64,000 nucleotides of DNA from a plasmid. The number at the start of each line of letters is the position of its first letter. Position 1 is the stretch's first letter. The stretch is taken from the sequence record NZ_MK262712.1. The stretch is one strand, 5' to 3'. Shown in pieces: positions 48,501-57,500 of this stretch. The position numbers were made by a program.

Positions 48501-51500
48501 ATCATCTTACAATGATAGTACTCAAAGCTTTCGCTACCTTCCCAGTCTAGAGACCTGGAGGAGTGAAACTCAGAAAGCAAAAGCAACATTGTGCCATGAT
48601 CACGAACAACATATAAAAATTCAAAATTACCATTTATCAACGCTTGCTTAACTAAGCGCAAATCTATCTCTATGTCGTAGTCATACCAAGGGCTATTAAC
48701 AAGAGAAGCGGAATGCTTCAGAATGAAGTGTTCCTTAACCCAGTTAAAAACCGATTCGATATCATAATCATAATAAACGTTCATAATTAGCTCTCCTAAA
48801 GTAAAAAAGGGAGAGCCCCACAGGGAGCACTCTCCCTGTATGGGTTATGAAATTATTTAATCAAGTCAAAAAATCTTTCTTCCAGTTTGCCTGGGAAAGC
48901 TTCATGACCCTTGAGCATTAATACATCATTCCAATCGACACCTTTCGCACCATCAGGTATATCCAGTTCAGGCAAATGAATCTCAACCCGGACTGTTGCT
49001 TCAGGATAGCGTTCAGCAAGTAAGGGCTCCATACGGCTCTTGAGAACACGTGCAGCGGACTCACCAGCTGAATTACCGGTGTTTGGATTTACCCGATCTT
49101 TATCTGCCCAAATCGACAATTCAATAAATTGGCAATCAGAAGGTGGCATTAAATACTCAGGTATTTCCAGCATTTCCATAAATGTTGAACTTGAAGATGC
49201 CCAGCAAGGAATTGAAGTCGCCTCAGTTACTGATAGCGCATTCTCAATACCTTCACTAACCCCCAAAAACCATGATTTAGTTTCATCACAGTAAGTTGGT
49301 TTAAATAACTGCATCGAACCACCATTCATCTGGTAGACCGGTTTCATCATTAACTTTGGGTTTTCAACATCAGCTTTTTTAAGTCCATCATCAGTAAGAT
49401 GAGTTTTATGGATAGTGCAATTGCGACCGAATTTATCGTTAAAAATAGCAACCATCGTTGGATGAAAACTGGCTGGCTTATTAGAACCGGGCCAGTATCT
49501 CATCTTAGCATTAAACCCCAGACTAGCTGGAATTTTTGTGAGCATCCGTTTTATACCGCGCCCTGATAGATATCGAGCAACCAATGAATCGGGTGTCACA
49601 AATTTTGTGTATTTATACACGGCTTCTAACTTATTTATACGACTAAGTCTCTCTTCCTCACCAATATCTGAAAAAGATTGAGCTTTTTTGTCATAAAGAA
49701 CAATATTAACACGGTCGGCTTCAGTTAACTTTCTATCCTTGGAAACACCAAGCATTTCAAGAATGTTTTTTGCAGCCTGCGTTTTACTAATGCTTTTTAG
49801 TTCAGCAATTAAATCAATGCCATCAATAAAAGTATTATGGGGATAATCCTCATGAATAGCATGAACACTTTCTAGCGTCCTATCTTTAAATCTGAATTTC
49901 GTTTTGCCACTACCAGTAAACGGGCATTTGACAGAACGTGGAGCTTTTTCTAAAGCCTCCTGAAACTCAGGATAGTACGTTAATACATTACGCCATCCAC
50001 CCAGCTGCTGCACATGAGATTTGACAAGGTCAAAAGTTTCTTGCGCGTACTGCATAGGGGTTTTAGCCGGTGAATTATAATTTGTAGAATGACTCATAAT
50101 ACTCTCCTAGCTGACATTGTGGGTTTCACAATGCCTACTGCAATGCAGATAACATTGAGAAACCCACAACGCAGAATGAAAGAAGTGCCACGAAGTGGCA
50201 CAATCATTTATAAGACTTCGAAACCATTAGCAATATATTTCGCCACCAGTCTTTCAACTGCTGAATCCATTGCTTCGGAATTGTCTTCGGAAAATGTGGC
50301 ATCACGAACTAATCGTTCAACCGGCATAATTCCATTAACAACTTCCCCTTCTGTGACGTATACCTTGGTTCCAATCATCCCACTGTCTAATTGACGAGAG
50401 TCAACGCGAACACGTTTAATATACTTATTACCTTTCATATGTTTGCTCCTTAAAGGCGAGCAAACATACCCATGCGGGTATATAAGCCCGCTTGGGAAGA
50501 TAATAGAAGTTAAACTAGGCTTCTGATTAAATCTTTATACAAAGAATTTAATTCAGAGATATCGTTTATTTTTTTAAAATAAACACCATCAAAGCCTAGA
50601 GGTTTATCAATGCCATAACCGACACAAACAATATCTATGCCATGTTTTTTAGCATTTTTAACTGCTGAGCATACATCATCTATTGATTCAGATGGGTCAC
50701 CATCAGTCGCAATAAAGATAACTTTACGTGAGAAATTCAAACGTGAGAAATATTCCACGCATGAATTAATCGCTGTCGCAGTTGGGGTATGTAATCCGCT
50801 AGAAACATTTTCGTAATTTGAAAAGCAACTAGATACAGATTTATTAAAAAACTTAAGTATATCTATATAACCTTCTTTTTGAACTGGATAAACAAGATCA
50901 GCAACATCAATATTGTTCACCGATTCACAAGCAAGGGTAAATGCAAGATTTGCTTTTAAGGCTAAAACTGATACGTCATGCATTGATACAGAGATATCAC
51001 GCAGGTTTATTACACCTACATCAGACCTTTTGTATCCCTCCCCGTATTTCTTAAACACAGAGGTTGCACCCATAGGTACTTCAACAAGCTTTCTACTATG
51101 AATACGAGATCCACGATCAGTTAGCCTGTTGTTACGCCGTACAGTTTGCTTATTTAAAGAAGAAAGTAACTTTCTTAGCTCACGAGAGTGAGCTAGAGCA
51201 TTATTATAGTCCTCCTCGGTCAGAGTGATAAAACCAAAACGAAAACCAAAGTTTTGAATTTCAGCATCACTGAAAGAAGATGCCATTTGAGATATGGATT
51301 TTTTTATAGCTTCATGAAAATCATGAGAATTATCCTGTTCAGCCTCTGTGTCTAGGTATTCATCAAGATCTTCAATCGCCTTTCTTAATTGCGCTGGTGA
51401 GAAACTTTGTGTTGTACGTGCAGAAGTTACAGAACCATCAGAACCATCAGAACCATCAGAACCGTCAGAGCCATCAGAGCCATCAGAGCCATCAGAGCCG

Positions 51501-54500: not shown

Positions 54501-57500
54501 ATAACTCATTGTTGATTTGTTTGATGGTGATAGGCCAGTTCAGCATATGGCTGATATATAATGCTAACTCCGTTTTACCAGATCCAGATTCTCCTTGCAG
54601 GCAGATGCCAGCAGTTACTTCATTATTTAAAAGTAACTTCACCATACGGCGTAGAGTGATCGGATTTGGACGATATTTACTGTTTAACGGAGCACGAAAA
54701 GGAGTAACTCTTTTGAAAATAGGTATAACGTCATTTTCTCCAAAACAGTCAACATTAAAGTGCTCGTTTGCACGGACAATAATGTATTCCTCTTCATCTT
54801 GATATTCTATAGCCTTGGTTAACTCATGAGGTTCGAAATATTTAATTTCTAAGTCAGAGTTAACATTCAAAGTTAGAATTTTTGCATTGTTGTTAGCAGT
54901 AGTAGCGGGTGTCATATATAACTCCGTTGGATATTTATGAAATTAAAGGTTTTTGATAATGGCTTTCGAAGTGCTGAAAAGTAATCCGTAATCAAAACCG
55001 TATACATGAGATATTACCTTACATGCATCGGAATATAACCACTCAACATAATCCACAGCTTCGGTTTTAAGAACATAAGAATCGGTATTCTGATCCAAAG
55101 TCCAGGCACCATTTTCACTTAGATTTTCAAGGATAATCATTTGCTCATCGAAAATCTTTTTAAAGAGTTTCAATCTGTCAGCTATTGACCATTTAATGAT
55201 CAATGATCTCCTTGTATAACAATATCTATCATCTAAGAAATCTGACCATTTAATCGGGCCTATAATAGGATGAGAAAATGTTAAGTTGTCAGTTTCTAAA
55301 GATTTAATAAGATCTTGCCTTGACTCTCTTGAACGTATTGCAAGAAGAAGTCTTGACTTAATAAAATCAATAATTTCATCTGGGTCATATCCGAAGCGAT
55401 GACACACAATTTGAAATTGTTTAGTACAATACCAATCTAACTCCAATTTTAATTTCGGTGTTAGATATCGAAACCCATTGGCATCAATTTTATAGACCAT
55501 CGATTGGTCTATATGGTACTGAACGGTTACAAAAGATGACTCCATTATTTTATAGAAGAACGTACATATATGTTCATCTGTCCAAATGAAATCATCTAGC
55601 TCTTGATAATCATGGTTCGGTACTTTGTTACCATGATCTTCAACTATTGAGTTTGATTCCACAGGTATATATACCTTTTCTTTAATTCCATCATCCTCAA
55701 AGAAGAATCTGAAACTAAGTTGGTTTTCATTCTCAATCTTTCTTAATTTACTACTTAAATGCATGATAGGTTTCTCCATAGGAGAAACCCAAATGGGATT
55801 TCTCCCAATAGGGGTTAAAAAATTATTAACGTGTTAAGAACCTTGAACCGCCGAAACCTTCAATAGGCTTAGGAGCTCGGTGAATCAATTTCTGGGCCTG
55901 GACTCTAACAACCGTCAATTCACCAGAGTGAACTTTATCAGTCACCAGACAACCAGTTATCATCAGGTTATCGCCTCGAATAATCTCTTTAAACTCCTTA
56001 TCATACAGGTCTTGAGGTATTTTCACTTGGATCGATGAAACTACCATTTCTATTTTACCATTTCTTTCCATTTCCTGTTTGTTATCCAGTATTAGCATAA
56101 TAGTGTCATATTCATTACGAACAATCACCTTATTAACCTCGCCGGAAACGCAAACAGTATTTATGTGATTTGTAAACATGTTAGGCCTCTTTTAAAAAAC
56201 AAAAAGAGACCCAAAAGGAGTCTCTTTTTCTCCTTATGGATGTGTGATTAAACAAAATTTAGAAGATGATACCTTTTTATAAAGGACAACTTTTATAGTT
56301 GAACTCCATGAATAAGATAAGTATCAATTATAGCCAATGAAGTTCATAATAGTTGAGATTCCGAAATAGAGAATGGCAACACAAGCAGCACCTTTCAGTA
56401 CTCTTGATACCGTATTATCATATCCCTTTACAAAACTATTATTTTCTACAGCTTTAATTTCTTGAGCTTGATTTGTTTCCATAGCTGCTTTAGCTTTCAT
56501 TTCATCATCTTTCAATGATGCTTCAAGTTTAAGCAGTCGTGGCATTAAATCTGCAACTACAAAATCAAAACTATTTACTTTGTGAATCATCATCTCGTTA
56601 AATGATAAGTCATAGTATTTGTCTTGAAGCCCGAATTCACTCATCAAAGGCTTCAATTTACCATAAAGGTCATTGAGGTCCTCATGACGAGATTCAACGG
56701 TCTCAACAAAGTGCTGACGTTTATAAAAAACATGCACCTCATCAATAACCATATCAAGCCATTGACTTACTTTAACAGCACCCAGCTTGGTCAGTTTATC
56801 TTTACCGAAGTGAAGAGACTCTGAAGTAACAATGGAGCTGATATTCAACTCAACAAGCTTTTCATCAAGAGATGATAAAAAAGCTTCGAGCGTTTTTTCA
56901 CGTGGGATGTCGGGAAATTCTTCAAGAAGTTGTTCAGCCTCATCGAGGTTGATCTCATTAATGAAGACATCACCAACATTCACGCTGTAAATCACAGAAC
57001 GTTCACAACCAACTAAATGCTTCAGTTTAGAACTTTCTTCAAGCGCCTTTAACTCAATTACACGGCTGACAGATTCTGTCATATACCAGATGTAACTCTT
57101 ATCGTCATCGGTGCCTTTTTCTATTTTACAAATATCACTGCCAGTATTCGATGGTGGAATTTCTTCACCATAAAACGCTTTGGAATAAGCCATCAAAATT
57201 GAATCTTTCTCAATTTTGTCAGCAGCCGGGCGTGACGGTTTAGCACTGGTGGCGGTTTTAGCACGTGTTGGGGTTTTAGCTTTGGGTTTAGCAGTAGTAG
57301 CAGTAGTCATTTTATATACCTTTAAGTTTAGAATTAAATCCGGAAAAACCATTTACGCAGTTTATTTAGAAATTGGCGAAAGCCGTCGTTTATCACCCTG
57401 AAGCAACAAACCGCCTGAGTTTATACTTTTCTGGCATTAGAAAGTCCGTAGAAAGTTACTTTTTGAAAGCAATTTAACTACGAGTTGTGGTAAGACAGAT

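Follow-up and report, generated by a model that had tools for sequence, protein, structure and literature searches.

In aerobic cobaltochelatase (CobS/CobT), as in BchI/BchD, an AAA+ ATPase is joined by an adaptor composed of an N-terminal domain (N-domain), an acidic linker, and a C-terminal von Willebrand factor A (vWA) domain with a metal ion-dependent adhesion site (MIDAS). The vWA-MoxR systems combine a MoxR-clade ATPase and a vWA protein with a third conserved protein, VMAP; in these systems widely varying effectors are fused behind the vWA domain, on its C-terminal side, and most occurrences are in multicellular bacteria (Kaur et al. 2020, PMC7159879). The zincin peptidases of the M48/M56 type (Ste24, BepA, BlaR1) and the Pfam families DUF2201_N/DUF2201, a putative metallopeptidase with a vWA-like domain, are also among the closest known systems to the locus described here. 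That locus is a cassette of three genes (the trio) within a 64,000-nucleotide stretch of a plasmid, sequence record NZ_MK262712.1; the whole stretch is called the window, and coordinates are window positions unless stated otherwise. The trio encodes an ATPase, a protein of the Pfam family DUF3150, and a CobT-like vWA protein with an HExxH motif. We describe its homology, domain architecture and synteny, the conservation of its HExxH and MIDAS motifs, and how it differs from VMAP systems and cobaltochelatase.

A further related locus has been characterized on IncC plasmids. The host-defence-evasion (hde) operon of pVCR94, vcrx087 to vcrx093, includes vcrx089 (with AAA_5 and CbbQ_C domains), vcrx090, ssb, bet and exo, and the vcrx089-090 genes counter type I restriction, acting in the recipient (PMC7498323). 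Deletion of vcrx089-90 raised restriction 424-fold with EcoBI and 906-fold with EcoKI (PMC11602122), and AntiDefenseFinder includes vcrx089_090 as an anti-defence system (PMC11724313). AcaCD activates bet and exo and many genes of unknown function along with the transfer genes (PMC4207636), and cDNA primed in vcrx094 was found to span vcrx087, vcrx089 and bet (PMC7498323). The gene order of the IncC plasmid pRMH760 indicates that vcrx094, the first gene past exo, should encode a DUF3150 protein, which would place DUF3150 on the hde transcript.

Because Vcrx089, a homolog of the ATPase of the trio, acts together with Vcrx090 against restriction in the recipient, and because DUF3150, as assigned by gene order, would be co-transcribed with them, we propose that the trio may be a host-defence-evasion or establishment machine of the incoming plasmid, serving most likely in the relief of type I restriction. 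We judge this proposal to have about an even chance of being right. An initial annotation of the window had named anti-defence among several options, and a role in conflict remains plausible.

A CobS/CobT-like pair with a DUF3150 partner

The trio consists of three open reading frames (ORFs) that run in the same direction on the minus strand, with gaps of 95 nucleotides between the ATPase and DUF3150 genes and 63 nucleotides between the DUF3150 and CobT-like genes (Table 1). The ORFs lie exactly where the initial annotation had placed them, and the Walker A and B motifs, HExxH, acidic linker and C-terminal vWA domain that it described were all found in the sequence. The guanine-plus-cytosine (GC) content is 36-41% in the trio region, which that annotation had assigned to an AT-rich backbone, versus 50-67% in the accessory segments of the window. 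By sequence comparison the ATPase and vWA genes form a divergent CobS/CobT-like pair, to which DUF3150 is added as a partner. The cassette is widespread and has already been annotated; in matching plasmids its products are labeled "AAA family ATPase", "DUF3150 domain-containing protein", and "VWA domain-containing protein" or "hypothetical protein".

Table 1. Coordinates of the trio, its motifs and neighboring features.
Feature	Coordinates	Strand	Evidence
CobS-like MoxR-clade AAA_5 ATPase, 350 residues	53863-54915	-	Pfam, TIGR01650, PDB, BLASTP, phmmer
Walker A GESGSGKT, ATPase residues 108-115	54571-54594	-	Read from sequence
Walker B ILLDEID, ATPase residues 171-177	54385-54405	-	Read from sequence
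DUF3150 protein, 358 residues	52691-53767	-	Pfam
DUF3150 aromatic C-terminal tip TPFNF	52694-52708	-	
CobT-like protein, 705 residues	50510-52627	-	Pfam VWA; phmmer to IncC and Vibrio orthologs
Predicted N-terminal CobT-type zincin-like domain, residues 1-258	51854-52627	-	
HExxH (CHEGGHNRY; HEGGH is residues 70-74 of the 705-residue protein)	52406-52420	-	
LPNGD motif, N-domain	52466-52480	-	
FEDIQMEE, with candidate third metal ligand E137	52214-52237	-	
Polyacidic D/S/G linker, residues 258-400	51428-51856	-	Tandem Repeats Finder (TRF), composition
C-terminal vWA domain with MIDAS	50513-51160	-	Pfam VWA/VWA_CoxE
MIDAS DISVS (DxSxS), residues 544-548	50984-50998	-	
MIDAS HTPTAT (T), residues 613-618	50774-50791	-	
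MIDAS ATDGD (D), residues 640-644	50696-50710	-	
Toprim/DUF7146 primase-like gene, conserved downstream neighbor	48853-50097	-	Pfam DUF7146, Toprim_3
Three conserved hypothetical genes (278, 117, 342 residues), helicase-to-ATPase interval	54943-57352	-	ORFs
UvrD-family TrhI-like helicase, head of co-directional array near traN	57644-59467	-	Pfam UvrD-helicase, UvrD_C
Tus-like replication-terminus-binding protein, end of array	45121-46080		Pfam Ter, 4.6e-23
Phd/YefM-RelE/ParE toxin-antitoxin pair, adjoining the helicase gene	59734-60256		Annotation of matching plasmid
Gene in the slot after the ATPase, IncC pRMH760	9791-10699 (own locus)		
Gene in the slot after the ATPase, Vibrio p123	8822-9646 (own locus)		
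Gene in the slot after the ATPase, Shewanella	8185-8715 (own locus)		

The first protein of the trio matched Pfam AAA_5 with an E value of 1.4e-28 and the CobS model TIGR01650 with 5e-8 over nearly its full length, as had been predicted for it, with the CobS score (32.4 bits) falling far below the cut-off of 558; the IncC and Vibrio orthologs reached 105-114 bits against the same model. Its sequence matches in the PDB were midasin, CbbQ, NorQ and CobS. On these matches the protein is assigned to the MoxR clade, closest to CobS, and the AAA_5 and VWA matches bear out the proposal, made from the outset, that a MoxR-clade ATPase and a vWA protein are partners here. Against the ATPase of IncC plasmid pRMH760, BLASTP gave 2e-19 with 25% identity over 216 residues, and phmmer gave pairwise values of 2e-16 to the IncC ATPase and 7e-27 to that of Vibrio p123. 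The window ATPase is, by these alignments, a distant homolog of the IncC anti-restriction ATPase Vcrx089.

The middle protein had been described as having no recognizable motif. It matched Pfam DUF3150 (PF11348) at 4.7e-15, with 56 bits versus a gathering cut-off of 24.9, and of the two families forecast for this ORF, VMAP or DUF3150, it is the latter that was obtained. The family is small: a search of 1.8 billion proteins gave 91 representatives at E values of 1e-3 or lower. In the 51 relatives that we aligned, PF11348 was the only family matched, in every one of them, and neither VMAP nor any other informative family was found. The window protein had a direct pairwise similarity of 1.6e-6 to its IncC or Vibrio counterpart. 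A structural model (predicted local distance difference test, pLDDT, 80) showed a small beta unit and long helices, and its structural matches were only generic helical bundles.

Past the Pfam core, the aligned DUF3150 proteins all continue into a disordered tail of variable and usually acidic sequence, which closes with an aromatic tip, in many cases [FW]-G-x-[FW]-COOH. F or W is the final residue of 47 of the 51 members and of the proteins from all 14 genome loci described below. Because the tip is conserved on a tail that is otherwise unalignable, it suggests a docking peptide. The aromatic C-terminal tip is a newly noticed feature of DUF3150.

The CobT-like protein

The 705-residue protein matched Pfam VWA (3.7e-6, residues 609-672), and all MIDAS motifs of the domain are intact and also kept in orthologs. 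A match to VWA together with a DUF2201_N-like or CobT domain had been expected for this ORF. The VWA part was found directly, while the CobT part was reached only through orthologs, there being no direct match of the window protein to Pfam CobT (PF06213) or to TIGR01651. The IncC, Vibrio, marine and phage-plasmid orthologs matched PF06213, which represents the CobT N-domain, at 5e-6, 7e-10, 4.5e-12 and 2e-25, respectively, with the IncC and Vibrio N-domains scoring above the gathering cut-off, and the same proteins also matched CobT_C; the Vibrio ortholog scored 46.7 bits with TIGR01651, whose cut-off is 759. When a profile of IncHI-type N-domains was compared with the IncC/Vibrio N-domains using hhalign, the probability was 99.2% (E = 3e-19), and phmmer with the window vWA protein gave 3e-20 to the IncC and 1e-23 to the Vibrio ortholog. 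The solved CobT in the PDB is collinear with the Vibrio ortholog through the acidic linker and then the vWA domain. The 705-residue protein is accordingly classed, by this indirect route through the IncC and Vibrio orthologs, as a divergent member of the CobT superfamily.

Absence of the HExxH motif from aligned homologs would have made it incidental, but the motif is kept. Residues H70, E71, H74, P51, G53, D54, T78, D133 and E137 are invariant in orthologs of 20-86% identity, and HExxH with the downstream ED...E motif recurs in IncC (HEAAH), Vibrio, metagenomic homologs and phage-plasmids (HEVAH). Among the genome loci it was present in 13 of 14. The motif is strict in the mobile-element clades and is missing from a CobT-like paralog on a Caballeronia megaplasmid, which lies outside any recognizable mobile-element context. 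In bona fide CobT the corresponding N-domain motif may be a degenerate HDxxxH. Alignment across these lineages indicates that HExxH is conserved and not incidental.

An AlphaFold model of the N-domain, built with a 10-sequence alignment, had a pLDDT of 89.7 and a predicted template modeling score (pTM) of 0.86. A Foldseek search of this model against the PDB returned no significant match, the weak ones including the zincins selecase, LTA4H and IRAP, and PDB sequence and profile searches with the N-domain did not reach the CobT N-domain. We have moderate confidence that the N-domain is zincin-like. Of the metallopeptidase-like effector region first proposed for this protein, the HExxH is conserved and the domain is predicted to be zincin-like, and the VMAP-type arrangement of the effector is not supported.

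The linker comprises 143 residues, of which 65 are D, 47 S and 28 G, with a net charge of -65. It is encoded by an 18-nucleotide tandem repeat of 23.6 copies (51430-51853, TRF), and its length varies among near-identical plasmids, the coding sequence specifying 705 residues here versus 687 in NZ_CP138747.1. In databases the protein is often found cut short at the repeat. Acidic linkers are found in Shewanella and other orthologs too, and the IncC linker is much less acidic, being rich in Q, G, N and K.

Distribution and synteny

The survey of homologous plasmids suggested with the initial annotation found a 5.8-kb stretch with the cassette covered to at least 80% in 559 of 566 matching records, nearly all of them from Klebsiella. 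The 566 are near-identical IncFIB/IncHI1B plasmids of about 200-390 kb with MOBH and MPF_F transfer types. By tblastn, the DUF3150 protein was found in 1,969 plasmids, 1,767 of which were typed conjugative, with identities of about 40% in IncHI2 and IncHI1 (pHCM1) and 20% in a Shewanella plasmid. Searches of a phage collection by tblastn with DUF3150 and the 705-residue protein found nothing, and word-indexed searches with the N-domain and DUF3150 returned close relatives and fragments only. A literature search combining IncHI with von Willebrand also found nothing, and the name DUF3150 turned up in one paper only.

The IncHI2, IncHI1 and Shewanella plasmids keep the order traN, helicase, ATPase, (small gene), DUF3150, vWA, small ORF, toprim. 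With the ATPase as query, matches extended to IncC plasmids and to Vibrio p123. Among the IncC plasmids, pRMH760 reads traN, ATPase, a 302-residue vcrx090-like gene, ssb, bet, exo, DUF3150, VWA, and resembles the window in its homologous ATPase, in the homologous DUF3150 and CobT-like genes that follow exo, and in its site next to traN within a MOBH/MPF_F element. The Vibrio p123 locus reads ssb, recT, exo, ATPase, a 274-residue gene, DUF3150, VWA, toprim. The SSB (single-stranded DNA-binding protein) of IncC (pRMH760 locus 10760-11290) carries DDDIPF internally, followed by a nine-residue extension, MRLHHLAGG, and an Alcanivorax locus is similar in this respect.

A scan with a two-sequence IncC/Vibrio alignment, applied to one genome per species, yielded 14 loci, mostly from marine gammaproteobacteria. 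The CobT-like gene directly follows DUF3150 in all 14, and 12 of them also carry the ATPase gene; the usual neighbors are ssb, bet/recT and exo. Metagenomic contigs have the same arrangement as the plasmid loci. Two contigs assigned to Chloroflexi/Dehalococcoidia metagenome-assembled genomes carry a locus nearly identical to those of Vibrio p123 and the gammaproteobacteria, and probably represent a mis-binned mobile element. In the Marinobacterium aestuariivivens locus (2417-11312 of that locus), every gene of the trio is broken into two ORFs, reflecting either joint decay of the trio or sequencing errors.

The slot that follows the ATPase gene differs between lineages. The IncC (302 residues), Vibrio (274 residues) and Shewanella (176 residues) genes found there are mutually unrelated, IncHI1 and IncHI2 have only an ORF of 57-89 residues, and in the window the slot (53768-53862) is empty. 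By gene order and homology, the three members of the trio are what stays invariant, and the trio is a backbone module of MOBH/MPF_F conjugative elements of the IncHI1B, IncHI1, IncHI2, IncC and marine types, the window carrying the IncHI1B form. In every case traN and a toprim primase-like gene are close by, and in many so are ssb, bet and exo.

A two-gene version was found in the NZ_CP082122.1 locus (6917-10356), where a CobT-like gene with HExxH (DHEVAH) precedes an AAA_5 ATPase gene and DUF3150 is absent. About 1,000 mostly non-conjugative records of approximately 110 kb carry this version, annotated as cobalamin or porphyrin biosynthesis; we take these to be phage-plasmids of the SSU5/pHCM2/pMT1 type. 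The pair shares with the trio the HExxH, a LEDVFIERK motif, the acidic linker, the vWA domain and the adjoining AAA_5 ATPase, but it is binary, is reversed in order, and is far closer to canonical CobT_C (276 bits).

Neighboring genes and other features of the window

The trio stands within a co-directional array that runs from the TrhI-like helicase through the three hypothetical genes, the ATPase, DUF3150, vWA, a small ORF and the toprim gene on to the Tus-like gene. The helicase is annotated trhI in IncHI1 and IncHI2, and the toprim gene is found at the equivalent place in IncHI2, IncHI1, Shewanella, Vibrio and marine loci. The 278-, 117- and 342-residue products matched no Pfam family above threshold; this block is syntenic in IncHI1 and IncHI2, where its three places are taken by genes of about equal length. 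The 278-residue protein upstream of the trio was considered as a homolog of Vcrx090 and rejected, as the two were unrelated by comparison. The strongest terminator-like hairpins on the minus strand were located at 56229-56201 and 50201-50185, others being weak. They flank the block from the 117-residue gene to a 76-residue ORF and may delimit the transcription unit of the trio. A promoter scan gave no more sites than expected by chance.

Elsewhere in the window, an outer-membrane efflux protein (477 residues) and an AcrB-type resistance-nodulation-division pump (1044 residues) are encoded at 3313-7885 with 60-67% GC, and form an acquired efflux cluster, possibly of the tmexCD-toprJ type. A 491-residue ABC-F protein with two ABC_tran domains and ABC_tran_Xtn (16121-17596, 36-38% GC) would be consistent with resistance by ribosomal protection, msr(E) being one candidate identity. 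An IS91-family transposase (Y2_Tnp and Zn_Tnp_IS91) is encoded at 22067-23608, and a 495-residue reverse transcriptase ORF (RVT_1), possibly belonging to a group II intron or retron, at 40803-42290.

Discussion

If the trio acts in host-defence evasion, a mechanism can be proposed from its parts. By analogy with CobST, BchID, CbbQO and NorQD, the ATPase ring would hold the CobT-like adaptor, whose MIDAS would capture an acidic ligand on the target, either the host restriction complex or DUF3150 serving as a bridge. The target would be remodeled through ATP hydrolysis, and the zincin site may then cleave it, which would make the trio a plasmid-encoded counterpart of ClpXP-dependent restriction alleviation. 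Control of type I enzymes by proteolysis has a precedent there, in the ClpXP-dependent degradation of HsdR. DUF3150 would be an adaptor or a substrate, which we propose because its gene is always directly upstream of the CobT-like gene and because its aromatic tip is docking-like. In a bolder form, which we consider unlikely, the trio and not the lineage-specific Vcrx090 would be the core of a hitherto unrecognized ATP-driven, MIDAS-targeted metalloprotease with which MOBH conjugative elements take apart or degrade host restriction or defence complexes on entry, with DUF3150 as an adaptor whose tip docks the target or the ATPase ring, and with a two-gene version in SSU5-type phage-plasmids.

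Several points weigh against a role in anti-restriction. Among these genes, the activity has been demonstrated only for vcrx089-090 of IncC plasmids. Homologs of Vcrx090, Bet, Exo and a canonical SSB were found neither in the window nor in the IncHI1/IncHI2 loci, and the trio is contiguous in the window whereas it is interrupted by ssb-bet-exo in IncC. The CbbQ_C domain was not detected by Pfam in the window ATPase, unlike Vcrx089, and the identity of the two ATPases is just that 25%. Two homologs have HEAGGH (HExxxH) in place of HExxH. The N-domain may act as a protease, but both this activity and the identity of any target are conjectural. An IncC transposon screen flagged vcrx089-093 only, and not the two downstream genes (PMC7498323). 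Deletions of neighboring conserved genes in SXT cut transfer at most 10-fold (PMC2791158), s067, s068, s070 and s073 being candidate counterparts of the families of the trio.

The neighbors of the trio would also suit an accessory role in DNA processing or establishment, in which the AAA+/vWA pair would remodel the nucleoprotein of the transferred strand (relaxase, SSB, primase or recombinase) and an SSB-like DUF3150 tail would recruit, or compete for, SSB-binding proteins. The toprim primase-like gene, UvrD helicase, ssb and bet/recT-exo are its constant company, the F/W-ended tail, usually placed after an acidic stretch, resembles the SSB tip DDDIPF, and the SXT deletions in the region lower transfer modestly. 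However, the sole experimental phenotype of any homolog is anti-restriction, Pfam and TIGR profile searches detected no DNA-binding domain in any of the three proteins, and the [FW]-G-x-[FW] tip is unlike the IPF of the SSB tip; we regard this role, the main alternative, as somewhat unlikely. The polyacidic linker might instead be the active part, a disordered polyanion that would imitate DNA and titrate type I restriction enzymes, much as Ocr or ArdA do, while the other domains form a scaffold. Its length and charge, its acidic counterparts in Shewanella and other orthologs, and the standing of type I systems as the main target of the IncC module would fit this idea. We nonetheless consider it improbable, as the equivalent stretch of bona fide CobT is also an acidic linker of low complexity, the IncC linker is of much lower acidity, the invariant residues fall in the N-domain and vWA domain with none in the linker, and linker length is not constant even between near-identical plasmids.

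The homology to CobS and CobT invites another view, in which the trio would act on a plasmid or host metalloprotein, either chelating metal or assisting cofactor insertion as CobNST, NorQD or CoxDE do, and HExxH would handle the metal and not serve as a protease site. MoxR/vWA pairs such as NorQ/NorD do insert metals. Yet CobN, BchH or another candidate client was absent from the 64-kb window, where the sole ORF of more than 1000 residues is the AcrB-type pump, and CobN was absent from the related loci as well. The partner present here is DUF3150, the scores are far under the equivalog cut-offs, and the module resides in plasmids, elements resembling integrative and conjugative elements, and phage-plasmids that lack a cob pathway. 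Such a role is quite improbable, and the earlier statement that the cassette is no cobalamin chelatase agrees with these results. The initial annotation had instead assigned the cassette to the vWA-MoxR ternary systems, with a metallopeptidase as effector. The trio does have three genes, including an AAA_5 ATPase and a vWA protein, its conserved HExxH region could serve as an effector, and the logic of a chaperone-controlled effector would be similar. The domain tests nevertheless largely refute membership, which we now hold to be very improbable. The middle protein is DUF3150 and not VMAP in all 51 relatives, and the vWA domain is C-terminal, the inverse of the VMAP order in which it is N-terminal to variable effectors; the architecture is fixed across lineages, with no diversification of effectors. 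PADLOC defence models gave no match to the DUF3150 and vWA proteins and only weak partial matches of the ATPase to four ATPase models. The distribution differs too, the trio occurring in the backbone of conjugative elements of enterobacteria, Vibrio, Shewanella and other marine gammaproteobacteria, and being co-transcribed with anti-defence genes in IncC.

The module belongs to the backbone of the IncHI1B/FIB, IncHI1, IncHI2 and IncC plasmids, families responsible for a large share of multidrug resistance in Klebsiella, Salmonella, E. coli, Enterobacter and Vibrio. Should the ATPase be invariably accompanied by DUF3150 and by a CobT-like protein bearing HExxH and MIDAS, then anti-restriction may be the work of a larger assembly that joins AAA+, vWA and protease functions. 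Were the proposed role in host-defence evasion true, it would provide the first functional context for DUF3150 and for the "cobS/cobT" genes of plasmids and phage-plasmids that have long been mis-annotated as cobalamin or porphyrin biosynthesis.

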